Positions 12,821-56,190 of a stretch of DNA of 64,000 nucleotides are shown here, piece after piece. A model generated the notes under the pieces. The model did no database searches. It was not told where the DNA came from and worked only from the letters and a program-made list of their open reading frames with translations. This stretch comes from an uncultured Candidatus Saccharibacteria bacterium (GTDB lineage Bacteria > Patescibacteriota > Saccharimonadia > Saccharimonadales > UBA4665), in assembly GCA_963743435.1 (NCBI GenBank), contig CAVUPG010000004.1, positions 176,238 through 240,237 of the forward strand, given 5' to 3'. Position numbers and translations under genes: made by a program. The number at the start of each line of letters is the position of its first letter. The stretch's first letter is position 1.

Positions 12821-13583
12821 TCAGAGGCCGGCACGCTGCACCACTTCCTGTGCAAGCGCCTTGTACGATCGAGCGCCCTTGCTCCATTTGTCATGTTCGA
12901 ATATGGTCTTGCCATGACTTGGCGCCTCTGCCAATCGGATGTTACGTGGTATTACTGTCTTAAATACACTATCGCCAAAATGCTGGGTGACCTCCGTTTG
13001 TACCTGCTCACTCAACACCGTTCGCTTCGTATACATCGTCAGCAGCACCCCGAAAATCGTTAAGCGAGGGTTAAGCCCCTGGCGTACCAGTTGTATTGTT
13101 TGCATGAGCTGACTGAGCCCCTCGAGTGCGAAGTACTCGGCCTGGACAGGTATCAGCACCCCGTTTGCTAGCTGTAAGTGCATTGACCGTCAATAGGCCC
13201 AGAGCTGGCGGGCAGTCAATGATAATAACGTCGGCTTGCACATTCATGAGCAAATCGGTCAGCTTTGTCTCTCTACTATCAACTGTTACTAGATCAACCT
13301 CTGCCTGTGCCAGCGCTCCGTTTGTCGGCAAAATGTAGAGGTTTTTGATGCGTGTAGCTAATAATACGTCCCCGACGGCTTGTGTACCAATTAGTGCATC
13401 ATAGAGTGTTAGCTCAAGACCCTCTTTCTCTATCCCAAGACTACTGGTGGCATTCCCTTGTGGATCCAGATCAACCAGGACAACACGACGCTTGGCGGAT
13501 GCAAGTTGTGCAGCCAAATTCACCGCGGTCGTCGTTTTACCAACTCCGCCCTTTTGATTTGTCACAGCCAGAACGAATGCCAT
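12821..13583 (-). CDS. parA: chromosome partitioning ATPase ParA/Soj; one frame break
   Basis: The N-terminal ORF 13071..13583 has the deviant Walker A NQKGGVGKTT. The C-terminal ORF 12821..13183 continues with ANGVLIPVQAEYFALEGLSQL. A 1-nt indel lies near 13160-13175 (AAA/GGGG runs). A strong SD (GGAGGAGG) lies upstream. Confidence 0.9.
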
Positions 13584-18980: not shown

Positions 18981-21900
18981 TTAGTAATTCTCGTTAAAGC
19001 CGAATTGGAACGAACCGATTCGGACTAAATTAGTTTGCGGGCTGATGGCCGTCGGCTTAATGACGAAGGTTATCGTATCGTTTGCCGAGAAGCTACACCC
19101 GTTCCCGGGGTCGCTGATTGTCGTGGACGTCCATGATCCGGTTTGTTTGATCGACTGAGCCGATGCGTAGCAGCTCGTACCGCTTGCATCTTTTATCATG
19201 ACGGTTGCATCGGTGCTGGTGCCAGAGTCGAGGTATGACCAGAAGGTAAAGCTGCTGGAGGTGAACGACGTAAAGCCACTTGGGAGTTGGTACTGCACCA
19301 CTATGTCATAGTCCTGTGCCGTCCCCTGGTCAGTTGTCCATGCGTAGTAATTTCGCCCGGCAGTTGCATCGTAGTCGCTGGTCATGAAGCCCGTATTATT
19401 CGAGCCATCCGCCGAGAATACCGTGCTTGGGAACTCTGGGTTGATTTTGACGGTACGAACATGCGAGGAGCCGCTGCCGGTGGTGTCACAGTCAACCCAG
19501 CCCGTCGTGTAGCACTTGAACTTGTTGTTGGTGCTGTCGTAGTACATTGCACCGGCAAGACCTGTCGGCGTGATGGTAGATGGCACATTGTCGAGCACAA
19601 GAAGGGTGACATCGCCCGCAGCAGAAGCAGTACTATCGCCAATCTTGATGCGGTTGTTGCTCGTATCAGCCTGGAAGAGTACCTGGCTGCCGCCATTGTT
19701 TTGTATCTGAAGAGCGGTCGCCGAGTCAGCGAGCGGGCGAATTGTCGGCGTGTACACGCTCGTACCGAAGTAGCCGCTGCGCCAGGTGATAGCAGAGCTA
19801 CCGAGGTCGTCGGTGTTGGTAGTGTCAGAGATGAGGCTGGTGTTGATAGCGACACTGGCAAGGTTACTGAGCGCCTGGTTTGCGCCGCCACCGCCACCGC
19901 CGCAGCCCGAGCTCATCGTACAGATAGTATCGTTTCCAGTCAGGTCTGGGATACTCAGGGTGAAGCTACCAGTTGTCTGCGTAGCAGAAGTGAGGGTAAC
20001 GACATAGTTATTCGTGACGTTAGCGAAAGTAATCTTCCCGCTGACGGCGTTCGTACCGCCGTTGTAGTTACCGAGTTCAATTTGGCCAGAGGTGGTGTTT
20101 ACGTTCAGGACCGCGACACCGTTGCCGTCTTGTATATTGACGGCCGAGCTAGAGCTGGCTTGCCTGAAGCGGATGTCTTGGCCATTTGCCGCTATTGCCT
20201 GCCCAGAATATACAGTGCCTGTACCGAGGTCAAAGATACTTGTAGCACCCGTACCGTAGAAGAGATTGGAGGACAAAATATTGTATTGCTGTGACGAATT
20301 CGGTATGTAGATAGCGTATCCGGTACCAGCAGTGTCGGTGATGACGTTATTGTTTACGAGGTTGTAACTACCTGTTAGGTATATGCCGCCATTGTTAGAA
20401 CTACCACCTGGGTTAGTTATAGTGTTGTTGGAGAGTTCGTTATTGTTATTTGAGCCATTCATGTATATAGCATAACCACCCGAATTCACTACTGTATTCC
20501 CTGTGATACTGTTGTATTTACCGCCCACGTTTATACTTATTCCCTTGCTGTCCCCGGTTGAACTATTTCCTGAGACAGTTGTATAGCTCGCAGATACATA
20601 GATGCCGATGTTCGTGTTACTGACAGTTTTGTTACCGGAGATGATAGCACCATCTGTCAACACAGTGAGACCCTGGGCGTTTGATACAGCGGTATTATTC
20701 GTGATGCGCGCGGAGGCACTATTCGAAAGATACAACGCATAATTCTGGTTTGATGCAAAGTAGTTACTCGTGACAGAGGCATAGTTGACGCCTGTCATGC
20801 TAACACCGTATGTTGCGTTGTTGTATACGTATGACCTTGTGATCGTAACGTAGTTGATATTACTCATGTACATACCATTGGAACGGAAATTGCTGACCGA
20901 AACTCCATCGATTAGAATACCCGGTGCGCTGTTGGTTGCACTGGAGCTTAGATTAATACCTGTCTGCGTTCCAGAACTGTTGTTAGCCCGGTTACCGTCA
21001 ATTACTAGGTTTCTGATAACCATCCCTGATGCTCCCGTGGCGTTTATGACATTCACGGCCGCGTTTACAGAGTTAGCTAATTTTAAGACGGTTGCATTAT
21101 CAGTTCCGGCGAGGATCACATTTGTCCCGATATTTATCGCTCCATCCACGATGTATGTCCCATCCAGCAGGTACACAGTACCACCACTGGCTGGCAGAGC
21201 TGCGATAGCTGCGTTTATGGTGGTCTGGGCACTGGTACAGCTTGTATCGACGTAGTCGGCGCCGTCGTAGTTCTGTGAAGCAGTTGGGGTGGTACCAGTA
21301 CAACCAGTGGTTGGGCCCATGGCGACTATCTTGGTGGCGGTAGAGCGATCACTCACCCACTTGGTACCGTTGTACTGGAGGAGTTGGTGAGTACTGGTGT
21401 CGAAGTAGAGCATACCCTCGGTTGGAGAGCCGGGGCGAGAGGCGGTGTTGCCGCCGGTGAAGGAGATAGTTTGGTTAGCACCGAGGACAGCACCAGCATT
21501 GATGTTGACACTGTCGTTGAGGTTAATGGTCCCTGCCCCGTCGAGAACGATGTTACCACTCGTGGTGGTGGTAAGGTTGAGGTCACCGCTGGTGACGTTG
21601 AGGGCTGCACTGAGGTTGGTGGAGGCGATGTTGCTGAGGCTTGTGTTGGCGCCGCCGGCACCACCACAACTGGTCCAACCTAGCACACCACTGCCGGTTG
21701 TGTCTGACAGACAGTCGCCAGAGCTACCGAGGCCGGTTGGGAGGGTGAGATTGTAGCTGGTGCTAGTAGCACCAGACTGGATACCGACGTTATTGGCGTT
21801 GGTAGAGTTGTTGAAGACAATCTTACCGTTGACGGCGTTAGAGGCGTTGTACTCACCAAGCTCTATCTCTCCGTTGGTGGTGTCGACATTAAGGACGTTT

Positions 21901-24900
21901 CGTCCATTGCCATTCTGGATGGAAACAGCGGCAGATGAAGCGGCTTGTTTGAAGCGGACATCGAGGCCACCGGCGGTCATAGCTTGGCCGGCGTAGATGG
22001 TAGATGTGCTAGCATCGTTGATGGTCGTGGCACCGGTGCCGCTAAAGGTGTTACCAGAGAGGTAGGTATTGCTGTCTGTGCTTGCGCCAATGCGTATAGC
22101 GTACCCCGTACCCGCCGTATCAGTGATTTTGTTGTCGGTTATAGTGGTGTTAGTTGCGTATGTGTTCAGATATATAGCGTCGTTGGCACCTGAGCCGCCA
22201 TTGTCATAGAAAATGTTTCCCGTAATCTTGTTATCACTAGAGGGAAGGCCTACAGCACCGTTTAGTTGGATACCGCCCTGTAGGTTAGCACTAAGATCAT
22301 TTCCGCTAATAACCGAGCGGGTAGTGACGTATAGGATGATGCCGGGATCAAAACCTGAGCCCGTTGCCGTTACGGAGTTGGAATGTATGGTCAGATAGTT
22401 TGAGTATTGTGCGGCTATACCGCCCTGAGCACTTAAATTAATCTTGTTGTTCGACAGCGTAACGTGATCTGCCTCAACAGATATGCCATAGGTACTGCTG
22501 TTGGCAATCGTGTTAGCATCAACGACAGTGTAATCGCCCTTCATTTGAATGCCGTAGCCGTTGTTGTCTATAGCGTTGCTAGAGATAGTGTTGTGTTGGC
22601 TACTTGCACCATAGCTATAAATACCGGTATCGGTATTATCGGTGATAGTGTTTCCGGTAATAACGCTGTTGACCATATTCGAGGCATATATACCGATGGT
22701 CGAGTTGAGGATAGCGTCAGACTTGTCGGCTTGCCACTTGCCGAGGGCAGAGTTGTATACCAACAATTGCTTGTTTGTTGTGTCGTAGGTAGTCATGCCA
22801 TCAACTGGGCCACCGTAGCCACTGATATTGGCGTAGGTGTCACCCGCCAGTCTCAGGGTTTTACCAGAAGCCACCGTAGTGTTCTGGTTGAGGTTGATGC
22901 TGGTAGCATTTGTCGTACCAATGTTTAGTGTGCCTGCGGAGGCGGTGTCGAGAGCGGTACCCTGGAAGCTGGCGGCGGTTAGTTGGCCAACGAAGTTTGA
23001 GGTCCCGTCGTCGTAGAAGCTCATTATCTCAGAACCGGCATTATTCATGAATGCAAGGCGTGAATCTATACCGGTGGTTGACACCAGTTGCGATATCGTA
23101 AAGGTACGGCTCGTACTAGAGCTGCCGTTCCAGTATTTGCCAGTCATGTTGATGCTCATAGCATTATATACAGGGTTAAATGAGGTTGCGTTCGCTGCTG
23201 CCTGGAGGTTTAGCTTGTTATTGGTGCTATCTACCCTCAGGATCGGCTGTGAGCCACTATTCTGAATGACAAATACGCCAGTGCTACTCGTACTACCGAT
23301 TTGGGTGGTACCGCTGACTTCAAGATTGTAGCTTGAAGGTGTCGTGTTTATGCCTATGCGCTGGTTACTGGTGTCGACCGTAAGTATAGATTGTGTGCCT
23401 GCGGCATTTTGGATACGTATACCTGTAGTAGAGTCAGTGACAGCGCTAATAGTGCCACTCGCCAGACCATCATTAAACGTCTTGAGACCACCGAAGGTCT
23501 GGGCACTGTGTGTCACTAGGCCGGTGTGAGTGGCAGTTGCCTCCTGGAGGTAGATGGTGGTGGTACTGATGCTGGCGCCATTGTCACTGTAGGTACCACC
23601 GTCTAGGGCACCGACGGTAGTGACTCCGGAGCCAGTGCCCCCACCACAACTGGTGAAGCCTAATACACCACTGCCGTTGGTATCGACCAGACAGTCACCA
23701 CTACTGCCGAGGGCGGTTGGGAGAGTGAGGGTGTAGTCTGCGCTGGTGGCACCACTCTGGAGCTTGACGGTGTAGGTATTGCTACTGTTATTAAAGGTTA
23801 AGACACCGTTGATTGGGTTAGTGGCATCATACTGACCCAGCTGGAGCTCACCATTGGTGGTGTCAGCATTGAGCAGGTTGATGCCGTTGGCGTCTTGGAT
23901 GTTGACGGCACTAGTAGATGCGGCTTGTTTGAAGCGGATGTCGAGGCCACCCGCGGTCATTGCCTGTCCTGCGAAGATAGTGGTGGCACCTGCATCGTTG
24001 ATTGCCGTAGCTCCCGTGCCAGAGAATATGTTGCCAGACAGTACGTTACTTACCGCATTGCCGTCCGGGAGGTTTATGGCGTAGCCGGTACCCCCGTTGT
24101 CAGTGATTACGTTATCCGCAATGCGGCTGTAGCGACCTTGGTAGTAGATGCCGCTTGCTGTCGTGGTAACAGTACCAGAGTTCGTAATAGTGTTGCCTAT
24201 GATGGCATTGTAGTCACCGCCCGACCTCACCTGTATACCATGAGAGGTCGCGTTATATATAGTATTGCCGCTGTACGTAACACCTACAGTACTGGCACCA
24301 AACTGCGTGCCAAACTGGTCACCATCAGAGGTGTTCCCCGTAACAGTAGCGTAACTTGCAGGCACAATTCCTGCCCCAGCGTTGCTTGCTGTGTGGTTTC
24401 CAGTGATTACTGCCCTAGGCGTAGACAGACCAATACCATAGTTTCCGTTTGCCTTCGCAATGTTACCGGTCACACTTACACGACTCGACGCCATAATTTG
24501 CGCACCAACAGATGAGTTATTGTTAAACTTGTTACCACTAATGACCCAGTCGTTCCCTCCGCTTACATACAGACCTATTGAACCGTTACTGTCAATCAAA
24601 GAGTTACGGATGGTAAGTTGGTTCATGTTCCTGACGTACGTGCCATACTGCCTGAAGTTACGAGCGGTTACTTGCTCTATAGTTATTCCTGGCGTCGTGT
24701 TGCTGATTGAACCATTCTGAATGTTTATACCAATCTGGTTACCGCTACTGTTATTCGCTTTGTTGCCATCGAGCACTATGTCACGGAACGTTATGCCCGA
24801 GACATCGACGGAGTTTGAGATCATACTAATATTCGCATTGATACCATTCTTCAGCTTCAATATCGTGCTTTGGCCCGCACCTGCAATTGTCACATTGCTC

Positions 24901-25121
24901 GGCACTGTCACTGCACCGTCAATGATATACGTCCCATCCAGCAGGTACACAGTACCACCACTGGTTGGCAGAGCGGCGATGGCGCGTTTATTTCTGTCTG
25001 GGCACTGGTAGAGCTGGTAATGACGTAGTCTGCGGCGTCGTAGTTCTGACTGGCGATGGGTGGTGCCGGTACAGCCGTGGTCGGACCCATGGCGACTATC
25101 TTGGTGGCGGTGATCGATCAC
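18981..25121 (-). CDS. giant fibre protein A, distal 2/3: three pectate-lyase-like parallel beta-helix domains, stalk modules, conserved C-terminal domain
   Basis: 2046-aa ORF. PbH1-type repeats (NxxIxxNxxxGI...) lie at about 23960-24985, 21990-22720 and 20200-21240. Only codons downstream of about 24985 (AIAALPTSGGTVYLLDG...) are in the true frame. The ORF-track N-terminus (24986-25121) is out-of-frame read-through of the junction with ORF 25096..27609. Confidence 0.8.
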   Translation of the reverse strand: MIDHRHQDSRHGSDHGCTGTTHRQSELRRRRLRHYQLYQCPDRNKRAIAALPTSGGTVYLLDGTYIIDGAVTVPSNVTIAGAGQSTILKLKNGINANISMISNSVDVSGITFRDIVLDGNKANNSSGNQIGINIQNGSISNTTPGITIEQVTARNFRQYGTYVRNMNQLTIRNSLIDSNGSIGLYVSGGNDWVISGNKFNNNSSVGAQIMASSRVSVTGNIAKANGNYGIGLSTPRAVITGNHTASNAGAGIVPASYATVTGNTSDGDQFGTQFGASTVGVTYSGNTIYNATSHGIQVRSGGDYNAIIGNTITNSGTVTTTASGIYYQGRYSRIADNVITDNGGTGYAINLPDGNAVSNVLSGNIFSGTGATAINDAGATTIFAGQAMTAGGLDIRFKQAASTSAVNIQDANGINLLNADTTNGELQLGQYDATNPINGVLTFNNSSNTYTVKLQSGATSADYTLTLPTALGSSGDCLVDTNGSGVLGFTSCGGGTGSGVTTVGALDGGTYSDNGASISTTTIYLQEATATHTGLVTHSAQTFGGLKTFNDGLASGTISAVTDSTTGIRIQNAAGTQSILTVDTSNQRIGINTTPSSYNLEVSGTTQIGSTSSTGVFVIQNSGSQPILRVDSTNNKLNLQAAANATSFNPVYNAMSINMTGKYWNGSSSTSRTFTISQLVSTTGIDSRLAFMNNAGSEIMSFYDDGTSNFVGQLTAASFQGTALDTASAGTLNIGTTNATSINLNQNTTVASGKTLRLAGDTYANISGYGGPVDGMTTYDTTNKQLLVYNSALGKWQADKSDAILNSTIGIYASNMVNSVITGNTITDNTDTGIYSYGASSQHNTISSNAIDNNGYGIQMKGDYTVVDANTIANSSTYGISVEADHVTLSNNKINLSAQGGIAAQYSNYLTIHSNSVTATGSGFDPGIILYVTTRSVISGNDLSANLQGGIQLNGAVGLPSSDNKITGNIFYDNGGSGANDAIYLNTYATNTTITDNKITDTAGTGYAIRIGASTDSNTYLSGNTFSGTGATTINDASTSTIYAGQAMTAGGLDVRFKQAASSAAVSIQNGNGRNVLNVDTTNGEIELGEYNASNAVNGKIVFNNSTNANNVGIQSGATSTSYNLTLPTGLGSSGDCLSDTTGSGVLGWTSCGGAGGANTSLSNIASTNLSAALNVTSGDLNLTTTTSGNIVLDGAGTINLNDSVNINAGAVLGANQTISFTGGNTASRPGSPTEGMLYFDTSTHQLLQYNGTKWVSDRSTATKIVAMGPTTGCTGTTPTASQNYDGADYVDTSCTSAQTTINAAIAALPASGGTVYLLDGTYIVDGAINIGTNVILAGTDNATVLKLANSVNAAVNVINATGASGMVIRNLVIDGNRANNSSGTQTGINLSSSATNSAPGILIDGVSVSNFRSNGMYMSNINYVTITRSYVYNNATYGVSMTGVNYASVTSNYFASNQNYALYLSNSASARITNNTAVSNAQGLTVLTDGAIISGNKTVSNTNIGIYVSASYTTVSGNSSTGDSKGISINVGGKYNSITGNTVVNSGGYAIYMNGSNNNNELSNNTITNPGGSSNNGGIYLTGSYNLVNNNVITDTAGTGYAIYIPNSSQQYNILSSNLFYGTGATSIFDLGTGTVYSGQAIAANGQDIRFRQASSSSAVNIQDGNGVAVLNVNTTSGQIELGNYNGGTNAVSGKITFANVTNNYVVTLTSATQTTGSFTLSIPDLTGNDTICTMSSGCGGGGGGANQALSNLASVAINTSLISDTTNTDDLGSSAITWRSGYFGTSVYTPTIRPLADSATALQIQNNGGSQVLFQADTSNNRIKIGDSTASAAGDVTLLVLDNVPSTITPTGLAGAMYYDSTNNKFKCYTTGWVDCDTTGSGSSHVRTVKINPEFPSTVFSADGSNNTGFMTSDYDATAGRNYYAWTTDQGTAQDYDIVVQYQLPSGFTSFTSSSFTFWSYLDSGTSTDATVMIKDASGTSCYASAQSIKQTGSWTSTTISDPGNGCSFSANDTITFVIKPTAISPQTNLVRIGSFQFGFNENY

Positions 25122-27534
25122 TCACCCACTTGGTACCGTTGTACTGGAGGAGTTGGTGGGTACTGGTGTCGAAGTAGAGCATGCCCTCGGTTGGAGAGCC
25201 AGGGCGTGAGGCAGTGGTGCCACCGGTAAAGGAGATGGTTTGGTTAGCGGCGACGACCGCACCAGCGTTTATGTTGACACTGTCATTGAGATTAATGGTC
25301 CCTGCCCCGTCGAGGACGATGTTACCACTCGTGGTGGTGGTAAGGTTGAGGTCACCACTGGTGACGTTGAGGGCTGCACTGAGGTTGGTGGAGGCGATGT
25401 TGCTGAGGCTTGTGTTAGCACCGCCTGCGCCACCACAACTTGTCCAACCTAGCACACCACTGCCGGATGTGTCTGACAGACAGTCACCAGAGCTACCGAG
25501 TGCTGTCGGGAGAGTCAACGCGTAGCTGGTGCTGGTGGCACCGGATTGGATGCTGACGGTGTTGGTATTAGCTGTATTATTGAAGACGATCTTGCCATTG
25601 ACGGCATTGGTGCCGCCATTGTAGTTACCGAGCTGAACTTCCCCATTGGTGGTATCAGCGTTGAATAGGTCGACGCCGTTGGCGTCTTGAATTGTGAAGC
25701 TATTGGTACTGCCATAATCGGTTGTCACGATTACGCCACCATTCGCACCTGCTCCAATTGGAGCCCCGCCCGATAATATTAAGTTACCTCCATTTGCATC
25801 ATTTGTTGGGGATAAGGATATAATCGAGTAATATTGAGGCCCGGTCGGGCTAGAGGTGAACGTCTGTGAGAGCGTACCGTTCGACCCACTGACGCTGTAG
25901 CCAATCATACCCCCGCTGCCGGTTGAGGCATTGTTCTGGGCTAAAACAGTACCTGTAGTGATACCCACAGTGTCATTATTTTGTCGAACTGCACCAGCGT
26001 ATAGGACGAGATCTCCTGAGCTTACATTTACCGGTCCAACGACCGTAGAAGCCGAGCCAGTAAACGATTGGTAGCCTATATGGTCATTCACAGCACCGAC
26101 ATCGTGCACCCCTATAATACCGACCTCCCCATAACCTGCGCCAGTAAACGTCACGGTCACGGAACCCCCTATGTCGCCCAGTGTCACCGTCTTGTAGTAC
26201 AGCGCACCACACATGCCTGCGCCACAAGTGTACTCAGGCCGAGTCCAACCCGCGGGAGTATTAATACCATTGTATTGCTCGACAGACATGACAAGCATAT
26301 CACCGACCGATAGACCAGTCGGGTAGCTCGCCACCATACTCGCTACGTTATTTACATGGGTAAGCGTGTGACCAACTATAGTAGGCGATCCTGTAGCAGT
26401 TGCATTACCGGCTCTGACGCTCAGGCTGCTCCCAGTGCCGCTGGTCGCATCCGCTACTGAAATCGTGTGCGGTGTATCACCGCCGAAAGTGACATCGCCA
26501 GCTGCATTTACATCATCATTGAGATTAATGGTCCCTGCCCCGTCGAGGACGATGTTACCACTCGTGGTGGTGGTAAGGTTGAGGTCACCACTGGTGACGT
26601 TGAGGGCGGCGCTGAGGTTGGTGCTAGCGATGTTGCTGAGGGAGGTGTTGGCTCCTGTAGAACCGCTACAGTTTGCGAGCGTGACGAGACACAGGGTGTC
26701 ACTCGTGCCAGCGAGGTCTGGGAGACTAACGGTACCATTACCCACCGTCTGTGCTGCAATACTCAGGCTCACCTTGTACGCATTGGTGCTGTTGAACAAG
26801 TCAATTGTTCCCGTGGTGGTGCTGGCGGTACCGACAGCCAAAGAGGAGCCGAAGATACCTTTGCCGGAGATGTTGAGGTTACCGGTCTGAGCAGTACCCG
26901 GTGTGCTGCCTTGGAGCTGGATGAAGCCAGCATTCGCTTCGTTCTCGGTGAGGAGATTGTAGCTGCCGGCTGCACCTTGATCACGGATCTGGAACGTCTG
27001 GTCACCGACGGTTGGAGCCTGTAGCGTGAGCGTCGAGCTCAGTGCACCACTCGTCGTGATGAGCTGACTCGCTGTCTTCGCATTGAACGCATACGGTACG
27101 GCGGTGAGGGAGAGGCGTGGGGACATCTCACCGTCCCATGAGTTGGAGGTGCCAGTACCACCGATGTCCATGGTGAGGTAGAGCTGCTGGTCCCATGGGA
27201 TGGTGGATGGGAAGCTGGTGATGGCACCGAGGTCAACGCTGAGGTAGCCGTTGGCAACTCTGACTCGGTTGTCAGGAGAGCCACCGTTGTAGTCACGGGT
27301 TTCAGTCCAGAGGAGGGTGCCACCAGTGGAGGCGTCGTAGAGCTTGAAGCGGACGTTGTAGTTGCCGTCTGGGGCGATCTGGCCGGCTCCCTTCTGGAGG
27401 CGGGCTTGGAAGTTCAGGGTGTCGTTGGTGGCAGCATACGCAGGCGTAGACACGCGCGTAAGGAAAAACAGGGGTAGGATGAGCAAGAACAAGACCGAGA
27501 TAGCGCGGGCCATGGTGAGGATACGACCAGACAT
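25096..27534 (-). CDS. giant fibre protein A, proximal part (signal peptide, conserved N-terminal domain, unique globular insert, stalk module)
   Basis: Start chosen at MSGRILTMARAISVLFLLILPLFFLTRVSTPAYA|ATND (GAGGGG SD 8 nt upstream). It ends artificially at WVSDRSPPPR*, where paralogues continue WVSDRSTATKIVAMGPTT... Confidence 0.8.
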   Translation of the reverse strand: MSGRILTMARAISVLFLLILPLFFLTRVSTPAYAATNDTLNFQARLQKGAGQIAPDGNYNVRFKLYDASTGGTLLWTETRDYNGGSPDNRVRVANGYLSVDLGAITSFPSTIPWDQQLYLTMDIGGTGTSNSWDGEMSPRLSLTAVPYAFNAKTASQLITTSGALSSTLTLQAPTVGDQTFQIRDQGAAGSYNLLTENEANAGFIQLQGSTPGTAQTGNLNISGKGIFGSSLAVGTASTTTGTIDLFNSTNAYKVSLSIAAQTVGNGTVSLPDLAGTSDTLCLVTLANCSGSTGANTSLSNIASTNLSAALNVTSGDLNLTTTTSGNIVLDGAGTINLNDDVNAAGDVTFGGDTPHTISVADATSGTGSSLSVRAGNATATGSPTIVGHTLTHVNNVASMVASYPTGLSVGDMLVMSVEQYNGINTPAGWTRPEYTCGAGMCGALYYKTVTLGDIGGSVTVTFTGAGYGEVGIIGVHDVGAVNDHIGYQSFTGSASTVVGPVNVSSGDLVLYAGAVRQNNDTVGITTGTVLAQNNASTGSGGMIGYSVSGSNGTLSQTFTSSPTGPQYYSIISLSPTNDANGGNLILSGGAPIGAGANGGVIVTTDYGSTNSFTIQDANGVDLFNADTTNGEVQLGNYNGGTNAVNGKIVFNNTANTNTVSIQSGATSTSYALTLPTALGSSGDCLSDTSGSGVLGWTSCGGAGGANTSLSNIASTNLSAALNVTSGDLNLTTTTSGNIVLDGAGTINLNDSVNINAGAVVAANQTISFTGGTTASRPGSPTEGMLYFDTSTHQLLQYNGTKWVSDRSPPPR

Positions 27535-27685
27535 GACGAGACCCCTCAAGTCGGGGTGACTGGGGGTATGACGAGGCGGTATGGGCGTATTGCCTGAGAG
27601 ACCTGGCATGTGTTTTTGGTTTGTTTGGTTTGGTTTTAAAGTTTTGGAAAGTTTGTGTGTGTATCGGTTTTGGTTTTGGTCGATA
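27071..27685 (-). repeat. shared 5' module, copy A (proximal leader + signal peptide + N-terminal domain)
   Basis: Near-identical by eye to 41664-42275. The coding part also matches 55331-55749. Confidence 0.8.
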
Positions 27686-27927
27686 CTGAACTCTATTGTG
27701 CGTGAAAATACACCCAGAGGGTACCCCTACAAAAGTACTTTTTGTGTGCAGCTATGTCGCAGCAAAATCAGAGTAAATTCGATACATTTTTGTAGTTTTT
27801 GTGACTACGTAAATTGTGTTAGCCGCTGAATCTAACAAGCTTTTTATTTAATTATTTAATCGTTCTGTTGTAAATATTCCGTAGTATCAAATACAATATA
27901 GGCTCATTTTTGGATAATTTTATTATG

Positions 27928-29715: not shown

Positions 29716-32700
29716 CTACCAGTGACTGGCCCCCGACACTACTTGCCAGATACATTGGGTAATTATTCGTGCCACCCGTGATATTTTGTGCGTAGTAGCC
29801 ATACAGATTTGTTGCGAGCCGTTCGCAAGTGGGCGTGCCATGAAGTCGTAGGCGTTTGTCACCGTCGATGCAAAGTCGAACTGGCCCATGACACCGACGG
29901 CGTTCTGGATAGAACCGGATCCACTTGCGGTGCCAACCTTGCCGATAGTGCCGACCACGTATCCAGTGTTTGACGTGTTGGATGCGCCACTCCAGTTGAC
30001 CTGGTTAACACTGCCGAAAACATCCCCGGTGAACGTTGTGCCCGTAGCACCAGGGGAAGCGAGAAGCAGATTCCCAAAATGGCCCCCTGCGCTTGAGCCA
30101 CCCGGGTTAAAGGTGGTGCTCAAGGTGTTGCCTGGCTGTAGACCCCCACCATTGTTCTGGTTTGTCTGCAGCGAGAACCCTGCTCCGCCATTAGTACCTG
30201 TAGCCTGAATCGAAACGTTCGTATTGTTTGCGGTAATGCTACTAGCCCCACCACGGATGACTGTGCTCGAACCGGAATGGGTAGAACCTATTGTGACGGT
30301 ATCGGCAGCCGTCGCATTAGTGGCGATATTGATGGTGTTGGCTGCGCTATTAGAGACACCCCCGATATCTATCGTAGTAGCGACTGTCGTATCACCAATC
30401 TTAATGCCTCCCGAACCAGAGTTGATCACAACACTTGTCGCACCTGTCGTGTTACCTATGGTAATCGTCTTGGCGTTTGCACCGGTACCGATATTCAGCG
30501 CTCCCGTTGTACCAGAGTCGACAAGGAGTGCCGTGGCCGTGGCTGATTGGAATACGGGTGCGGTAAAGCTCGTCGTCGCACGGCCATCACCGCTTATCCA
30601 GAAATTCGATGTACTCTGCGCGCTACTATTTTGGTTTCGTATGTAGCTTGTATCTGCTGTTGTCGTAGTTAGCAGCGTCCCGCTCACATTCGGCAGTGTC
30701 CACGTACGGTTAGCCGTTAGGTCAGCGTTGGTGATGGTGCCAGTGAAGCGACCTGCTCCACCTGCCGTGACTGCAACGGCGATGAGGTCGTCCGTGGCGG
30801 TCGAGGTGTCTACCGTGAGCGTACGGATGGTTGCACCACCCTGGAAGCTCGAAGCTGTGGTGGTGGTTGCACCACGACCAGTGACCGTAGCAAGGGTGTC
30901 GGCTTCGGCACTGAGACCACAACTACCCCATTGGATGCTGGTTGTGGTGCTGGTGAGACATTGACCGTTGGTACCACGAGCCAGACGAGTACTGTTGGTA
31001 CCGTTGTTGTAGAGGAGGTCACCATTGGTCGTGAGCTGAGAGAGGTTGTTGATGGCGCTTTGGCTGGTGGTGGCACCAGTGCCACCATTGGCTATGGGCA
31101 CTGCTGGTGGTGCCGGGACGCCACCAGCGGTGTTGGTGACGATGCCAGCGGTACTCAGGCCAGTTATAGTCACCGTCTTCCCCGCTGCCACAACCGTATT
31201 TTGGTTGAGGTTGATGCTGGTGGCATTGGTGGTGCCGATGTTGAGGGCGGCGGCAGACGCAGTGTCGACCAAAGACGCTAAGAGATTTGTTGTTCGAGTC
31301 GTACCTGACACGTCGAGATCGTATTGAGGGTTAACGGTACCGATGCCGACCTTGCCGGCCCCGCTCAACTGCAGCCCTGCGTAGTTGATGTAGTAGTGTC
31401 GACCACTAGCTGTAAACCCGACACTTGAAGAGACAGTAATGTGGGTAGCGCCAGTGTACCCGGTTATTGTACCGACGTATGGCGCAGTTGAGGTCGATGC
31501 TGAATCGATGTAGATAGTGTTGCCTACCATACCAGCGCTAAAGCTTGTCCCCGTACCTACGATAGCGCCAGAAGCGTTTGTGGTCGCGACGGTACCAGCA
31601 CTGGTGCGGTAGGCCTCTGCAGATAGTTGGTTCAACGGGGCACCCGTGCCGATACCAACTTTTACGGAGTCTACGCCCTGACCACCAAGCGCGATAGTAT
31701 TCGACTGGAAGACCTGTGCGTAGGCACCGATGGCGGTGGTGTTTTGCAGATTATTTACGGACTCGAAGTACGAGCCAGAGTCCCAGCCGCCTGCAGCATA
31801 ACCGATGGCAGTGTTGTGGCTACCCGTCGTGTTGTTGAACCCAGAGTAGGCACCAAAGCCCGCGTTACCGCTACCTGTAGTATTTGAGTAAAGTGCCTCT
31901 TCGCCAAACCCTGCATTTTCGTCACCGCTTACATTGCCCTGCAAAGCCCAGCTACCTGTGGCCACGTTGTAATAACCGGTTGAGTTTTGAGAGAGCGATT
32001 GAGAACCAACAGCAATGTTCCAGCCTCCGCTCGTGTTATTGAGGAGCGCAATCTCGCCAATCGCAACGTTTTGCGAACCGGTCGTGTTGTGAAGCAGTGT
32101 CGATGGCCCAACTGCCGTGTTACGATTACCGGTTGTAACGCTCTGGAGAGCGTTAAGTCCGATACCGACGTTGTCGTAGCTACTGCTCTGAGCATTTTGG
32201 AGTGCGCCCGTACCAAAGCCCAAGTTGCCGTTGTACGCGCGTATCTCGGCACCCGTCGCACCAGTGCTGTCTTTGATTACGATTGGGGCAGAAGCAATAC
32301 TTGAGACGGGCTTGATACTCAGAATGGTGATTGAGCCTGTCTGTGCGCTATCCACACCGACCGCAAAGCTTGCCGTCGTAGTCGCGGTTAATAACTGGCT
32401 CTTTGACGTGGTGTTGCCGAAGATATAGATACCTGTCGCTCCGCCCAGTTTTGGCCAGAATGCGTATCCACTTGTCGTACCTGTCGTCGTGTATTTGACC
32501 TCATATGTCGTACCGGCAGTGATGCTTGGGCTTGTACAAGTAAGCACTGTATTGGAGCCGGCTGTGTGCGTCCATACATTGGTGCCGGTATCTGTCCAGT
32601 TAGTACCAGTACAGGTGTTGTTATCAGCTCCGAAGACATCCGATCCCACCGTGGCATTATCGTACTTATTCTGGAAGCTGGTCTGCTGGGTAGAAGCATC

Positions 32701-33176: not shown

Positions 33177-33696
33177 TCTTGCCGTTGACTGGATTGGTGC
33201 CGCCGTTGTAGTTGCCGAGCTCTATTTGGCCTGAGGTGGTATTGGCATTGAAGACGTTTACACCATTGCCGTTTTGGATGGATACTGCTGCAGATGAAGC
33301 GGCTTGTTTGAAGCGGATGTCGGTGCCACCGGCGGTCATAGCCTGACCGGCATAGATAGTGTTAGTGCCGGCGTCACTGATGCTTGTCGCCCCCGTACCA
33401 GAGAAGGTGTTGCCGGAGAGGTATGTGCCGCTCGTACCAGTCGCATTTACCTGGATGGCGTAGCCTGTACCGGCTGTATCTGTGATGGTGTTACCGTGCA
33501 CTACAACATTGGCGGCGTATTGGTCGATGAGGATAGAGCTGGACGCTCCAGTGCCACCGTTGTTGTACAGGGTGTTATCACTAACGTTGGTGTCGTCAGA
33601 ATGGTAGGCCGATGAGCCGTTAACCCGGATACCCTCTGCGGTGTTGCTGCTGGCGGTGTTGCTGGTGATGAGCGCACGGTAGCGAGCCGTAGACAT
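33112..33696 (-). CDS. fibre C fragment (end of beta-helix domain 2 + stalk unit)
   Basis: Contains NTITDTAGTGYAIQVNATGTSGTYLSGNTFSGTGATSISDAGTNTIYAGQAMTAGGTDIRFKQ, paralogous to fibre D at about 52450-52700. Confidence 0.65.
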   Translation of the reverse strand: MSTARYRALITSNTASSNTAEGIRVNGSSAYHSDDTNVSDNTLYNNGGTGASSSILIDQYAANVVVHGNTITDTAGTGYAIQVNATGTSGTYLSGNTFSGTGATSISDAGTNTIYAGQAMTAGGTDIRFKQAASSAAVSIQNGNGVNVFNANTTSGQIELGNYNGGTNPVNGKIVFNNCFQRKHRRYPVWRHER

Positions 33697-33776
33697 AGAA
33701 GCCTTACCCGGTGTTCGAGACGGCCTTGTTACCAGTCACGACCACATCGTCCGCGTAGGCGATGTCGAAGCCACCA

Positions 33777-34304
33777 CTACCGTTGCCCGTCGCGGTGTTG
33801 CCTGTGACGCGCATGCCGACATCGGAGTCGATGTAGAAACCGTAGCTGTAGGCGTTGTTGCTGCGATGTTGTCAGACACGACATTGCGAGCGCCGTTAAT
33901 GTAGAAACCGGTGCCGCCAGTGTTGGTAGCAGTGTTATCACTGACAACATTGTCGGTACCGAATATCTCCATACCATCACCACCTGCAAGGTTGCTGATA
34001 GTGTTACCTGTAATTGTGTTAAAGGAGAGCCGGAATAGAGATTAATACCGCCACCGCCTGAGTTAATGATGGTGTTGCCTGCAATGTAGTTGTGATCTCC
34101 GGCAGTAATGTCGATCGAATCATATGGAATACGTGTAATTTGCAGGCGAGTCACAGAAGCGCCCGCACGAGAGGCAGATTCGCTGCCCATGTTGGTCAAG
34201 TTAATACCCGTGCCCGTAGCACTGTTGCGATCAGTTCGCCCATCGAGTTTAAGGTCACGAATCGTAACACCTGTTCCAGTGGTCTGATCGGTGTTCACAA
34301 TCAT
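33777..34304 (-). CDS. fibre C fragment (beta-helix domain 2, N-terminal turns)
   Basis: Contains TIRDLKLDGRTDRNSATGTGINLTNMGSESASRAGASVTRLQITR, paralogous to fibre D at about 53250-53420. The reading frame decays towards the 3' end. Confidence 0.6.
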   Translation of the reverse strand: MIVNTDQTTGTGVTIRDLKLDGRTDRNSATGTGINLTNMGSESASRAGASVTRLQITRIPYDSIDITAGDHNYIAGNTIINSGGGGINLYSGSPLTQLQVTLSATLQVVMVWRYSVPTMLSVITLLPTLAAPVSTLTALAMSCLTTSQQQRLQLRFLHRLRCRHARHRQHRDGQR

Positions 34305-34903
34305 GGTAATCCCCGTGCCATGGTGCCGAAGTTACCGAGCTGGATGATGGTACTGTTACCGCTACCAGCGAGTGTGACGTTGTTCGGGATGGAGATGCTG
34401 CCGTCTATGGTGTAGGTGCCTTCGGTGAGGTAGACGGTGCCACCACCAGCTGCAGCGGCAGCAGTTAGGGCATTGTTTATTTCTATTTGGTCACCGTCGA
34501 GGGTACCGATGCCACTGCCAGAGCTGTCTTCGCCATTGGCGACGTACTGCGCACCATCCTTGGCTGCTTGTGAGCTGTTGCTGGCGGCGACGATGAAGGT
34601 AGCAGCTTTGCTATCGCTCTGCCATTTGCCATTGCTGTAGGTGAGGAGTTGTTTGGTGGTGGTGTCGAAGTACATAGTACCCTCAGATGGTGAGCCTGGA
34701 CGGTTGGCGGTGGGAGCCCCAACAAAGCGGATTGTCTGCGCGGCAGCTACCGTCGCACCGGCGTTAATGTTAACTGAGTCATTCAGGTTTATTGATCCCG
34801 CGCCATCCAGCACGATATTGCCGGAAGTGGTTGTGGTGAGGTTGAGATCCCCGTTAGTGACATTGAGGGCAGCACTGAGGTTAGTGCTAGAGATGTTGCT
34901 CAA
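34301..34903 (-). CDS. fibre C fragment (stalk module + start of beta-helix domain 2)
   Basis: Contains ...NRPGSPSEGTMYFDTTTKQLLTYSNGKWQSDSKAATFIVAAS...GGGTVYLTEGTYTIDGSISIPNNVTLAGSG, highly similar to fibre D. Confidence 0.7.
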   Translation of the reverse strand: MSNISSTNLSAALNVTNGDLNLTTTTSGNIVLDGAGSINLNDSVNINAGATVAAAQTIRFVGAPTANRPGSPSEGTMYFDTTTKQLLTYSNGKWQSDSKAATFIVAASNSSQAAKDGAQYVANGEDSSGSGIGTLDGDQIEINNALTAAAAAGGGTVYLTEGTYTIDGSISIPNNVTLAGSGNSTIIQLGNFGTMARGLP

Positions 34904-40205: not shown

Positions 40206-42128
40206 CTATCGAGCCGTTGCCTGAAACAATGTTATTCGAGATTGTCGTACTTTATCTCCAGCTAATATACCCATATTGCCATTCGAGCTTACCGTGTTGC
40301 CACTAATAAGTAGGCCGCTAGTCGAGCTGCTGTCGATACCTCTACTTGAGTTTGAGGTGACAGTGTTGTTGACTATTTTTGCGTTGGGTGCACCCTTAAT
40401 GTATAGGCCAGAGTTATTTGTCACGCCTTTGATTGTGCTATTCTCTATCGTGCTTGAGTTAAAGTTATTGGCGTACACTGCCACGCTCCGCGTGTTTTGA
40501 ATGGTTATATCGGAAATAATCACGCCCGGCGTGCTCGTGACATTCGTGTATATACCTTGGTGGTTTGCACTACCGTTGTTCGCGGCATTACCATCCAACA
40601 TCATGTTAGTGATTTTCACCCCGGCCGAGCTGGTAGTGACCATGTTTATCGTAGCTGTGCTGTCGGCGATAATCAGCTTTGTGCCGACACCGGAGCCAGT
40701 AAACGTCACATTGGCCGGGATGGTTATCGCACCGTCAATCACATACGTCCCCTCCATCAAGTACACAGTACCACCGCTAGCTGGGAGGGCTGCAATGGCT
40801 GCATTTATGGTGGTCTGGGCACTGGTACAGCTGCTGGCAACATAGTCAGCACCGTCGTAGTTCTGTGAAGCAGTTGGGGTGGTACCAGTACAACCAGTGG
40901 TTGGGCCCATGGCGACAATCTTGGTGGCGGTAGAGCGATCACTCACCCACTTGGTGCCGTTGTACTGGAGGAGTTGGTGAGTACTGGTGTCGAAGTAGAG
41001 CATACCCTCAGTTGGTGAAACAGGGCGAGAGGCGGTGTTGCCGCCGGTGAAGGAGATAGTCTGGTTGGCACCGAGGACAGCACCAGCGTTGATGTTGACG
41101 CTGTCATTGAGGTTAATGGTCCCTGCCCCGTCGAGGACGATGTTGCCACTCGTGGTGGTGGTAAGGTTGAGGTCACCACTGGTGACGTTGAGGGCTGCAC
41201 TGAGGTTGGTGGAGGCGATGTTGCTGAGGCTTGTGTTAGCACCGCCACCACCTCCTCCGGTACAGTTGGCGAGCGTGACCAGACAGAAGGTGTCGCTCGT
41301 ACCGGCTAGATCTGGAAGACTGACGGTACCATTCGCAACCGTCTGCGCAGCAATGTTTAGACTCACCTTGTACGCACTGGCGCTGTTGAACAAATCGATT
41401 GTTCCGGTTGTGGTACTAGCCGTACCGACGGCTAATGAGGACCCAAAGATTCCTTTGCCGGAGATGTTCAGGTTACCCGTTTGGGCGGTGCCCGGGGTGC
41501 TGCCTTGGAGTTGGATGTAGGCACCATTGGCAGCTGCGCCGGTCAGGAGCGTGTAGGTACCAGCGGCGCCCTGGTCCGGGATGACGAAGGTCTGGTCACC
41601 GACAGTTGGAGCTTGGATGCTGAGGGTTGAGCTCAGTGCACCACTGGTGGTGACGAGCTGTGAGGCTGTCTTCGCATTGAACGCATACGGTACGGCGGTG
41701 AGGGAGAGGCGTGGGGACATCTCACCGTCCCATGAGTTGGAGGTGCCAGTACCACCGATGTCCATGGTGAGGTAGAGCTGTTGGTCCCATGGGATGGTGG
41801 ATGGGAAGCTGGTGATGGCACCGAGGTCAACGCTGAGGTAGCCGTTGGCAACTCTGACTCGGTTGTCAGGAGCACCACCGTTGTAGTCACGGGTTTCAGT
41901 CCAGAGGAGAGAGCCACCAGTGGAGGCGTCGTAGAGCTTGAAGCGGACGTTGTAGTTGCCGTCTGGGGCGATCTGACCTGCTCCCTTCTGGAGGCGGGCT
42001 TGGAAGTTCAGGGTGTCGTTGGTGGCAGCATACGCAGGCGTAGACACGCGCGTAAGGAAAAACAGGGGTAGGATGAGCAAGAACAAGACCGAGATAGCAC
42101 GGGCCATGGTGAGGATACGACCAGACAT
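40206..42128 (-). CDS. fibre C, N-terminal fragment: signal peptide, conserved N-terminal domain, stalk module, beta-helix domain 1
   Basis: Same MSGRILTMARAISVLF... start and SD as fibre A. It continues WVSDRSTATKIVAMGPTTGCTGT...AIAALPASGGTVYLMEGTYVIDG without a break, which shows how the fibre A junction should read. Confidence 0.8.
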   Translation of the reverse strand: MSGRILTMARAISVLFLLILPLFFLTRVSTPAYAATNDTLNFQARLQKGAGQIAPDGNYNVRFKLYDASTGGSLLWTETRDYNGGAPDNRVRVANGYLSVDLGAITSFPSTIPWDQQLYLTMDIGGTGTSNSWDGEMSPRLSLTAVPYAFNAKTASQLVTTSGALSSTLSIQAPTVGDQTFVIPDQGAAGTYTLLTGAAANGAYIQLQGSTPGTAQTGNLNISGKGIFGSSLAVGTASTTTGTIDLFNSASAYKVSLNIAAQTVANGTVSLPDLAGTSDTFCLVTLANCTGGGGGGANTSLSNIASTNLSAALNVTSGDLNLTTTTSGNIVLDGAGTINLNDSVNINAGAVLGANQTISFTGGNTASRPVSPTEGMLYFDTSTHQLLQYNGTKWVSDRSTATKIVAMGPTTGCTGTTPTASQNYDGADYVASSCTSAQTTINAAIAALPASGGTVYLMEGTYVIDGAITIPANVTFTGSGVGTKLIIADSTATINMVTTSSAGVKITNMMLDGNAANNGSANHQGIYTNVTSTPGVIISDITIQNTRSVAVYANNFNSSTIENSTIKGVTNNSGLYIKGAPNAKIVNNTVTSNSSRGIDSSSTSGLLISGNTVSSNGNMGILAGDKVRQSRITLFQATAR

Positions 42129-42275
42129 GACGAGACCCCTCAAGTCGGGGTGACTGGGGGTATGACGAGGCGGTATGGGCGTATTGCCTGAGAGACCTGG
42201 CATGTTTGAGTTTTGGGTTTTGGTTTAGTTTTTGAAAATGTTTGTTTGTATCGGTGTTTTGGGTTTGATTGATAC
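41664..42275 (-). repeat. shared 5' module, copy C
   Basis: See 27071-27685. Confidence 0.8.
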
Positions 42276-46299: not shown

Positions 46300-46345
46300 A
46301 CCCCCCGCCTGGCCGTTACCATCCCCCTGTGGTGGCAGGTCGCAG

Positions 46346-55794: not shown

Positions 55795-56190
55795 GACAAT
55801 ACCCCTTAGTCGAGAGAGACTAGGGGTGCGTTGCAATATGGCAAGCGCCGTACGTTTTGGTTTGAACATTTGGTTTAAGGTGTTTGTCTTGGTTTCGCTT
55901 TTTGACTTGCGAGAGACCAAAAATGTTTGTTTGGATTTGTCACGTTTTCGTTTGAATTTTTGTTTCGGACAATTCCTGCACTCAGTATCGCTAGATACGA
56001 CAAGATATACAACCGAAAATGTATGCAAAAATTTGTACCCAATTTGTGCATAAATACCTCTAGAATACGTTGTGCTGTGTGCAACGTTTCATATACACCC
56101 CTGTTTTCTGCACTCGTTTAGGCTACAAAAAGTGATGTAGTGACACCAAATTTCGTAGCTATATTTGCAACGATATTTATATTGCATGTG

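Follow-up and report, generated by a model that had tools for sequence, protein, structure and literature searches.

The opa genes of Neisseria are an example of concerted evolution of the 5' regions in surface-protein families. Families of this type resemble the genes analysed here (A, C and D) in a constant segment that is homogenised, sharply bounded and next to diverged segments, a pattern pointing to gene conversion; however, no hypervariable cassette or phase-variable repeat is seen in A, C and D. Phage tail fibres and tailspikes offer another likeness, with a constant N-terminal adaptor, variable distal modules, beta-helix depolymerase-like domains, fibre repeats and mosaic module exchange, whereas A, C and D are chromosomal, carry signal peptides and have no phage genes near them, and their N-terminal domain matches no PHROG family. 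The Giant1-5 genes of Apilactobacillus kunkeei (PMC12863079) are similar: they are consecutive, encode very large surface proteins and make up several per cent of the small genome, with a diversity shaped by recombination. Their fold families differ, and these paralogues are less than 20% identical, with no recent gene conversion between them reported in that study. The prey-binding MAT (mosaic adhesive trimer) fibres, chimeric proteins of the predator Bdellovibrio bacteriovorus (Caulton et al. 2024, PMC10769870), are likewise encoded by many paralogues per genome, and attachment to other bacteria is the way of life of both organisms. Yet the saccharibacterial proteins have two to five times the length and contain several beta-helix modules, the S74 chaperone-protease domain was not found in A, C and D with Pfam, and the paralogous heads are near-identical here at the DNA level, a feature not reported in the paper on the MAT fibres. 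The MAT-bearing lineages listed in that paper include neither Saccharibacteria nor other Patescibacteria.

The window, that is the whole stretch of 64,000 nucleotides analysed here, comes from a genome of Candidatus Saccharibacteria and contains three genes for very large, predicted-secreted fibre proteins of roughly 2,900 (A), 4,700 (C) and 2,200 aa (D). All three lie on the minus strand, and the locus is bordered by the housekeeping genes rplU, ileS and nrd at one end and by parAB, lepB and frr at the opposite end.

18984..27609, minus strand: fibre gene A, from the ORF list; probably one gene, ~2,870 aa
28011..42203, minus strand: fibre gene C, probably one gene, ~4,700 aa; a 665-aa ORF (40206-42203), then frameshifted fragments
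49135..55869, minus strand: fibre gene D, intact, 2,244 aa from the ATG at 55869; alternative start at 55794

Gene A is split into two ORFs, 25096-27609 (837 aa) and 18981-25121 (2046 aa). Each of the three genes has its own leader, start codon and Sec signal peptide, with predicted cleavage between AYA and AT and the N-terminal domain directly after it. No other phage gene was found within the 64-kb window, no Rfam family matched anywhere in it, and promoter and terminator scans upstream of A, C and D gave chance-level results only.

The N-terminal domain of 124 aa is present in exactly three copies in the window (tblastn). Together with all or part of the signal peptide it makes up the head block of each gene, which is preceded in A and C by related leaders.

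27069..27609, minus strand: head block of A; signal peptide 27433-27609, N-domain 27061-27432; alternative start ATG at 27534
41663..42203, minus strand: head block of C; signal peptide 42027-42203, N-domain 41655-42026
55332..55749, minus strand: head block of D, beginning in the hydrophobic core of the signal peptide and ending with the N-domain (N-domain 55321-55692); 98.4% identical to A and to C
27610..27686, minus strand: 5' leader of A, A/C-rich and G-poor, homologous to the C leader at ~71% identity
42204..42275, minus strand: 5' leader of C, A/C-rich

The original prediction, made by eye, that A (27071-27685) and C (41664-42275) are near-identical was borne out by the alignment, in which 587 of 619 columns match; from the first ATG (27609 and 42203) to the end of the domain the agreement is 531 of 540 nt. 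The coding part had been said to extend to D. This holds from the signal-peptide core onwards, 55331-55749 matching A at 414 of 419 nt and C at 413 of 420, but not for the start of the signal peptide: identity with A and C spans +45 to +462 relative to the internal ATG of D and thus begins inside the hydrophobic core. Self-blastn recovered the same blocks, with 98.4% for 27064-27496 (A) against 55324-55755 (D), and 88.4% over 1185 nt for 26516-27686 (A) against 41104-42275 (C). Beyond the head block, identity among A, C and D drops sharply to 55-76%. The heads differ pairwise at 5-7 sites, and the flanks are unique on both sides of each.

A leader of about 150 nt had also been proposed as a common element, and this proposal needs revision. 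The leaders of A and C are indeed homologous (56 of 79 columns match over the 76 nt upstream of the first ATG), in an A/C-rich, low-complexity region (A leader: 37% A, 36% C, 12% G) where the alignment score was nevertheless equalled by only one of 500 shuffles. About half of the presumed leader of A (27535-27609) is, however, probably coding: the in-frame upstream ATG gives the signal peptide a longer n-region, which recurs in homologues of other genomes. D has no leader in common with A and C; its upstream start (MFKPKRT...) agrees with the starts of homologues. CAAAAC-type leaders also precede homologues in other genomes.

Comparison of the nucleotide sequences strongly supports an exchange of DNA, by gene conversion, among the heads of A, C and D. 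Inside the head block, the three paralogue pairs differ at 3/81, 4/83 and 3/81 fourfold-degenerate sites (3.7-4.8%); just past it, they differ at 49/106, 30/46 and 28/42 (46-67%; Fisher p 1e-11 to 1e-14). Between genomes, 42-66% of the fourfold sites of the head differ even at 75-93% amino-acid identity, and the head is therefore free of nucleotide-level constraint across lineages. Since synonymous sites are homogenised only in the head, the sameness of the three copies reflects recent DNA copying rather than selection on the protein. A second strain, represented by one ENA contig (L001) from an independent assembly that covers one of the three heads, is collinear with positions 37521-25080 of the window at 95.2% identity; its contig name appears to be Flye-style. 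Just past the head block, the L001 gene matches A at 427 of 437 positions and C at only 332 of 437, and is thus A-type; its head nevertheless has C-type alleles at +216, +218, +254 and +255, a single tract in a single strain. An orthologue of D was searched for in L001 and not found, an exact 29-mer of the head had no match in JGI metagenomes, and a protein-based metagenome scan, whose best matches were at 82-86%, did not turn up any contig of this species.

Paralogous heads that are alike only in this segment also occur elsewhere. Two on the same contig of another genome (L010/L011) are 99.8% identical over 466 nt, and further pairs reach 99.3% (L082/L083), 98.4% (L018/L019) and 94.3% (L007/L009), while the paralogous heads of three further genomes share just 79-84% identity. 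Judging from these comparisons, homogenisation of the head is common, but not universal, across genomes. Non-reciprocal homologous recombination between direct repeats probably keeps ~420-540 nt identical, and the conversion tract ends where homology ends, at the domain boundary. The predicted exchange among paralogues by recombination or gene conversion is thus well founded in the synonymous contrast, the sharp tract boundaries and the C-type patch in the A-type head of L001. Its supposed consequence, surface variation, does not follow: conversion of the head makes the copies alike rather than diverse, which is concerted evolution of a constant module, and there are no signs of cassette switching.

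As anticipated, modules downstream of the head are partly shared, partly unique and arranged in different orders: blocks 72-98% identical are repeated inside each of A, C and D and from one gene to another at differing relative positions, all of them direct repeats and none inverted (self-blastn of the window). This comparison of repeats supports the view of A, C and D as paralogues in which the head is constant and the body is a mosaic.

30676..31152, 35168-35751 and 37372-37851, minus strand: three copies of an internal repeat module of C (self-blastn 94.5-98.1%)
33342..34713, minus strand: beta-helix module of C, common to D 52446-53822 (76.8% over 1390 nt)
49138..49803, minus strand: C-terminal tip of D, a CBM-like beta-sandwich (AF2 pLDDT 88)
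18984..19649, minus strand: C-terminal tip of A, homologous to the D tip (35% identity)

Gene A encodes Pfam Beta_helix, NosD and pectate-lyase-like domains and matches a PHROGs tail-spike family; gene D encodes Beta_helix, NosD and CBM_4_9. The bodies and tips match tail-spike and virion-structural families of PHROGs. The Beta_helix and tailspike-like matches would fit trimers without demonstrating them. The best Foldseek matches of the D tip are CBM61 (E 3e-5), CBM22, CBM11 and C-terminal domains of phage tail fibres and tailspikes, while the C terminus of C is unlike the tips of A and D in sequence. The D tip has 112 homologues at 42-85% identity. This C-terminal tip family is fairly conserved between species, which weakens a simple reading of 'constant head, variable tip'.

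Most of the frameshifts that break A and C are probably assembly errors, since the housekeeping genes for IleRS and ParA in the window are frameshifted too. The break in gene A consists of four gaps totalling 5 nt at 25112-24983, relative to two paralogous copies, and L001 has an intact base at 25111, where the gene breaks. In gene C, protein alignments with paralogues continue straight across the frame changes, and residues 637-1116 of D align to C across three reading frames (tblastn). L001 has an intact 1838-aa ORF where gene C of the window has 10 frameshifting indels, and over this ORF the two strains differ by no more than 106 substitutions, of which 70 fall at codon position 3. We also considered the broken ORFs of gene C as silent cassettes or pseudogenes; this is unlikely, given their collinearity, the intact L001 sequence and the frameshifted IleRS and ParA genes. 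The warning that such a locus is prone to assembly artefacts is well taken, as a contig ends in or beside the head in 17 of 35 metagenome loci and in 4 of 26 genome loci. All 17 word-index matches to the head are proteins of 100-201 aa, and two of these are labelled 'partial' at source. Near-identical heads break short-read assemblies and draw consensus errors, and public MAGs therefore contain genes of this kind in systematically truncated form.

The family to which the head belongs is very large, with 10,372 cluster representatives at E<=1e-3 and loci mostly in Saccharibacteria. Among the 150 members listed, protein length ranges from 144 to 6,916 aa, and nearly all best matches begin within the first ~140 residues. 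The AF2 model of the head is all-beta, with eight strands (pLDDT 84). Searches against Pfam, NCBIfam at the default threshold and PHROGs gave no named family, phmmer searches of D and A2 against PDB sequences returned nothing, and Foldseek comparison of the head model with the PDB yielded generic Ig-like matches only (best E 0.037, not significant). A link to MAT fibres emerged only with a relaxed NCBIfam threshold, under which the profile NF053851 (Bdello_MAT_N) matches D (E 2e-6) and A (E 8.8e-6). Relatives of an intermediate kind match it at E 1e-9 to 3e-8, and 8 of 10 further family heads do so at E 8e-8 to 2e-3; all these scores are 18-38 bits and lie well under the NCBI curated cut-off of 60. 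The partial matches fall along the profile as expected, positions ~5-91 being aligned with the N-terminal part of the head and ~125-160 with its C-terminal part. These profile matches suggest remote homology of the head to the MAT N-domain at the superfamily level, and not membership of the Bdellovibrio subfamily. We found no account of this head family in Saccharibacteria in the literature; our coverage was incomplete and this is not proof of novelty.

Several other explanations can be considered for the pattern of near-identical heads and diverged bodies. The heads might serve as recombination handles in a programme of surface variation, with the fragments of gene C acting as silent donor cassettes of the pilE/pilS, vlsE or MgPa type. 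The mosaic, repeated modules within and between A, C and D, the patchy divergence between the window and L001 (blocks of 99-100% beside blocks of 71-90%) and the numerous ORF fragments between 28 and 42 kb are all in line with such a scheme. We nonetheless regard it as improbable: all three copies come with a leader, a start codon and a signal peptide and there are no silent start-less copies, while the fragments of gene C form one collinear coding sequence whose 1838-aa ORF is intact over the 10 frameshifts in the 98%-identical strain, with substitutions mainly at third codon positions. Moreover, every repeat is direct, the genes for IleRS and ParA are frameshifted as well, and a Pfam scan of the ORFs (those under 150 aa not exhaustively) detected neither a recombinase nor a reverse transcriptase. 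The lack of such matches in these ORFs, and of inverted repeats in self-blastn, also leaves no sign of diversification of the shufflon or DGR type. The alternative module junctions to be looked for in related strains did not appear either, the junction between the C body and the A head having the same gene order in L001, the sole related strain available.

Purifying selection on the protein, or on a 5' RNA or DNA element, might instead keep the heads identical without any exchange; the strong conservation of the amino-acid sequence of the head in thousands of proteins and the capacity of 5' gene ends to hold regulatory signals would fit. This is most unlikely, because fourfold sites are 95-96% identical among the paralogues and only 34-58% identical between genomes with similar proteins, alleles are shared with L001 in a mosaic manner, and the window has no Rfam match. 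Indel errors in the window, and the frequency with which such repeats break assemblies, could lead one to suspect that the assembler copied one head to three genes or mis-joined a repeat; but the heads differ at 5-7 sites and have unique flanks on each side, the independent L001 assembly reproduces the A head with the same upstream and downstream sequence, and the same pattern is found on single contigs of several other genomes (such as L010/L011), leaving this explanation with hardly any weight. A Sec-type signal peptide is not expected on a tail-fibre gene, and one starts each of the three genes. This speaks against their being structural genes (tail fibres or tailspikes) of a prophage or tailocin rather than genes for cell-surface fibres, as do the housekeeping flanks, the absence of any other phage gene in the window and the thousands of homologues in Saccharibacteria genomes. 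Despite the PHROGs tail-spike and virion-structural matches and the resemblance of the tip to C-terminal domains of phage tail fibres, we consider a phage origin of this kind very improbable.

Candidatus Saccharibacteria are obligate epibionts of other bacteria, and the three proteins are likely to be candidate host-attachment fibres: secreted, with a constant MAT-like head that is homogenised by conversion, and with variable bodies and tips. Their common layout comprises the signal peptide, the 124-aa head and phage-fibre-like repeats with at least one right-handed beta-helix module of the tailspike or pectate-lyase type, A and D ending in a CBM-like tip. By analogy with MAT, the head probably attaches each fibre to the same component of the cell surface, while glycans of the host cell would be bound, and perhaps cut, by the variable bodies and tips. 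That the proteins form trimers, are displayed on the surface, are anchored by the head and bind the host is inferred. Saccharibacteria are generally considered to have no outer membrane, and any fibre anchor must therefore differ from that of Bdellovibrio. As the docking module would be common to all paralogues, gene conversion between direct repeats would keep it alike, and such conversion may be favoured by selection rather than merely tolerated.

A wider reading, which we put forward only tentatively and think rather doubtful, is that the head marks the main fibre system of Saccharibacteria and other Patescibacteria: thousands of MAT-like fibres would share one conserved surface anchor, their bodies and tips would set the host range, conversion of the head would be under selection, and the whole would represent an ancient or horizontally spread host-recognition device common to the predator Bdellovibrio and the epibiotic CPR bacteria. 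If so, head conversion would keep newly acquired or reshuffled bodies compatible with the anchor, much like the adaptor domains of phage tail fibres. The literature that we found on host recognition and attachment in Saccharibacteria and ultra-small epibionts concerns type IV pili. The locus described here is a concrete, testable candidate for the attachment of an epibiont to its host, and its head offers a handle with which all such fibres of a genome may be found and tagged, and their surface anchor fished out.

Three paralogous genes for secreted fibres (A, C and D) in the window each carry at the 5' end one copy of a direct repeat of 420-540 nt, at intervals of about 14 kb, and we have shown that these head repeats are held at 98-99% identity by gene conversion, with tracts that stop at the domain boundary. 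The shared head of the original prediction was borne out: exactly three copies of the domain are found in the 64 kb window by tblastn, and their alignment yields near-identical blocks. The genes begin as follows:

Gene A: ATG 27609, minus strand; same starting module as C and D
Gene C: ATG 42203, minus strand; same starting module as A and D
Gene D: ATG 55869, minus strand; same starting module as A and C; the ORF listing puts the start earlier, at TTG 56028

Over the segments first proposed, A and C are identical in 587 of 619 alignment columns, with 531 of 540 identical downstream of the ATG and 56 of 79 in the 76 nt upstream of it, a score equalled by only 1 of 500 shuffles. The D segment (55331-55749) is identical to A at 414/419 and to C at 413/420 columns. 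Numbered from an internal ATG (A 27534, C 42128, D 55794), the block common to A and C extends from -75 to about +465, and the identity of D with both begins at +45, within the hydrophobic core of the signal peptide. The identity blocks of the three pairs share their 3' limit, +462/+463, directly 3' of the motif AVPYAFNAKTAS; beyond it, A and C are 76% identical, and D is about 55% identical to each of them.

Protein constraint as the source of this identity is contradicted by the fourfold-degenerate sites, compared only in codons with the same amino acid in both genes. Between A and C, 3 of 81 such sites differ in the block as against 49 of 106 in the following ~245 codons; the corresponding counts are 4/83 and 30/46 for A-D, and 3/81 and 28/42 for C-D (Fisher p 1e-11 to 1e-14). 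Between genomes, 42-66% of the fourfold sites of the head differ even at 75-93% protein identity, and thus no cross-lineage nucleotide constraint explains the identity within a genome. Direct evidence of conversion comes from L001, an independently assembled 20-kb ENA metagenome contig reached via a 98%-identical protein (P0018) and collinear with window positions 37521-25080 at 95.2% identity. Just past the block, its A-orthologue matches A at 427 of 437 positions and C at only 332 of 437; within the head it has C-type alleles at +216, +218, +254 and +255. The presence of C-type alleles in an A-type head implies that a tract of at least 40 nt was converted between paralogues in one of the two lineages after the strains split.

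A genome scan with the head gave 48 loci, most of them in Saccharibacteria and the remainder in some other Patescibacteria and some MAGs labelled Gammaproteobacteria or Elusimicrobia. In pairs of copies from the same genome or assembly, identity is limited to the signal peptide and head:

Head-block identity of copy pairs within a genome or assembly
L010/L011: 99.8% over 466 nt
L018/L019: 98.4% over 322 nt
L082/L083: 99.3% over 150 nt
L007/L009: 94.3% over 440 nt
L012/L013, L015/L030 and L059/L065: 79-84%

Homogenisation of the head is thus frequent, at 94.3-99.8% in four pairs, and not universal, three pairs being at 79-84%. The L010/L011 tract stops at the domain boundary at which those of the window stop too.

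The fibre bodies comprise Beta_helix, NosD and pectate-lyase-like domains, with an additional CBM_4_9 in D (Pfam), and match tail-spike and virion-structural families in PHROGs. That shared and unique modules occur in different orders holds true, since self-blastn and tblastn detect modules of 72-98% identity at differing relative positions within and between A, C and D. For instance, A 2185-2721 corresponds to C 958-1499 and to A 5954-6456 (nt from the ATG), and a 480-nt unit has three copies in C (94-98% identical). All body repeats are direct; cassette-type antigenic variation, shufflons and diversity-generating retroelements were examined and are not supported. Divergence between the window and L001 is patchy, blocks of 99-100% identity alternating with blocks of 71-90% (elsewhere given as 71-93%). 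The diverged blocks lie at 37521-36322, 29731-28547 and 26751-25900 and contain many indels, the locus being otherwise 98-100% identical between the two strains; the most divergent (28547-29731) is near the 3' end of gene C, and 25900-26751 is an inserted domain in gene A. This pattern fits segmental replacement. The tips, i.e. the last ~220 aa of D (49138-49803, minus strand) and A (18984-19649, minus strand), are 35% identical to each other and form a family of their own (112 matches at 42-85% identity, nearly all short protein fragments); gene C terminates in a sequence unlike this tip. The tip model (pLDDT 88) resembles CBM61 (E 3e-5), CBM22 and CBM11, as well as the C-terminal domains of phage tail fibres and tailspikes. 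Conserved cysteines are present in the tip, preceded by a MYYD...CY..GW..CG motif. A and D are therefore conserved at both ends and vary most in the middle.

Concerning the leader of about 150 nt proposed upstream of A and C, the likeness between the two stands, and the 75 nt nearest the gene are probably part of the coding sequence. A start at the in-frame ATG further upstream adds 25 aa and so makes for a long n-region (MPGLSGNTPIPPRHTPSHPDLRGLV- for A and C, MFKPKRTALAILQRTPSLSRLRGIV- for D) whose motif is kept in homologues from other genomes (MFKLKRT..., MQKPKRI..., MIKPKRT..., MSKQTTNP...RGFVV). The internal ATG/GTG is preceded by a conserved AGGGG that resembles a Shine-Dalgarno site, the Arg codon being AGG in all homologues inspected, and the gene caller picked the internal start in the near-identical P0018. 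On these grounds the start of each gene is ambiguous: the upstream ATG (27609, 42203, 55869), the internal one (27534, 42128, 55794), or both. Cleavage is predicted at AYA|AT whichever start is used, and the mature protein opens with the 124-aa domain. The leaders upstream of the first ATG (27610-27760, 42204-42350 and 55870-56020, minus strand) are A/C-rich and G-poor (12-16% G), with runs of the CAAAAC/AAACCAAA type, and may be unstructured translation leaders; no Shine-Dalgarno site was found in them. This style recurs in five homologous loci of other genomes (L005, L009, L010, L011, L050).

The suggestion that the locus is prone to assembly artefacts is supported. A contig end falls in the head, or no more than a few hundred bases away from it, at 17 of 35 metagenome loci and 4 of 26 genome loci, and all 17 proteins retrieved by a word-index search with the head are short (100-201 aa; two named 'partial' by the source). 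Gene D (6.7 kb) and the gene of the 1515-aa protein next to gene A are intact. Gene A is split into ORFs of 837 and 2046 aa by four gaps (5 nt in total, at 25112-24983) relative to two paralogous copies; gene C opens with a 665-aa ORF and then breaks up into roughly a dozen fragments in shifting frames down to 28011. Some of the frameshifted genes may be real pseudogenes. The paralogue alignments run on across the frame changes of gene C, and opposite an intact 1838-aa ORF of L001 the window has 10 frameshifting indels and only 106 substitutions, 70 of them at third codon positions; this pattern indicates purifying selection and makes real decay of gene C unlikely. L001 carries frameshifts of its own elsewhere, and housekeeping genes of the window are also affected:

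59835-60230 and 57308-60082, minus strand: IleRS pieces; the HHGTLL motif and the rest of the N-terminal 60 aa lie in another frame
13071-13583, minus strand: ParA, truncated (170 aa); ParB comes next, at 11884-12744

IleRS is essential, and its split by a 1-nt insertion near 59990 (minus strand; cttGagctc) points to assembly indel errors. ParA aligns to the AAA_31 profile over positions 3-141 (of 177) and has an out-of-frame-looking tail; its truncation is probably another such frameshift. Altogether, we conclude that most of these frameshifts are probably consensus errors of an error-prone assembly.

Fibre genes, Kelch genes and the gene of the 1515-aa protein together form an island of surface proteins that spans about 42 kb (14-56 kb). 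Between D and C lies a run of Kelch-repeat ORFs (43479-48612, minus strand; 394, 290, 198 and 601 aa), which may be one or two larger genes split by frameshifts; the same head is joined to Kelch bodies in some family proteins (P0310, P0342). The 1515-aa protein (14432-18979, minus strand), directly downstream of gene A, has its own N-terminal membrane/signal segment, many DUF5122 beta-propeller repeats (SWSKTWGG...) and linkers in which 'DGTDYTS' recurs. The 64 kb (1-64000) yielded no tRNA gene and, at the gathering threshold, no Rfam family. Cumulative GC skew is lowest at about 16-18 kb, adjoining parAB, which may only mirror the base composition of the long fibre genes on the minus strand.

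The head has no Pfam family. An exhaustive phmmer search gave 10,372 cluster representatives at E<=1e-3, of which 379 reach E<=1e-30; among the 150 matches listed, nearly all best alignments begin within the first ~140 residues of proteins of 144 to 6,916 aa. A common head with a variable body thus characterises a very large family and is not peculiar to this locus. In its AF2 model (pLDDT 84) the head is all-beta, with no significant match among solved structures. Its sole NCBIfam match is NF053851 Bdello_MAT_N ('mosaic adhesive trimer family chimeric fiber protein'), weak with full-length C (E 0.009), clear when only the N-terminal part of D (E 2e-6) or of A (E 8.8e-6) is used, and stronger again with relatives 35-43% identical to the window head (E 1e-9 to 3e-8); 8 of 10 further family heads match it. 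The partial matches are in the expected order (N-terminal part to profile ~5-91, C-terminal part to ~125-160), and all scores are 18-38 bits, under the curated cut-off of 60. Clear head homologues at the N-terminus of fibre-like proteins, 35-43% identical and with the same terminal AVPYAFNAK motif, occur in L028, L031, L033, L036, L039 (Gammaproteobacteria or Pseudomonadales) and L040 (Elusimicrobia), labels that would place these MAGs outside Patescibacteria; the homologues in them are also the strongest Bdello_MAT_N matches.

The MAT fibres of the predator Bdellovibrio are the closest known system, with the same design and a head that is probably a remote homologue. B. bacteriovorus has 21 paralogues; the MAT N-domain is without structural homologue and is thought to bind a predator surface element, and relatives are present in other predators, Patescibacteria being absent from the list (Caulton et al. 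2024, PMC10769870). The window fibres differ from these in lineage, cell envelope and protein size, in having no S74 domain and in the homogenisation of their heads at the DNA level. To judge by where it sits, how widespread it is and what MAT fibres and phage adaptor domains suggest by analogy, the head is probably a constant docking module; given their beta-helix and CBM-like domains, bodies and tips would bind or cut host-surface glycans. Heads might be kept alike by selection for fit to one anchor, and high identity, by favouring further recombination, would reinforce itself. Hypothetically, a crossover between two of the directly repeated heads would remove or duplicate entire fibre genes and so change the repertoire. 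The modular fibre principle and the concerted evolution of a constant domain are already established; for CPR specialists, a MAT-like fibre family of such size in Saccharibacteria is worth knowing.
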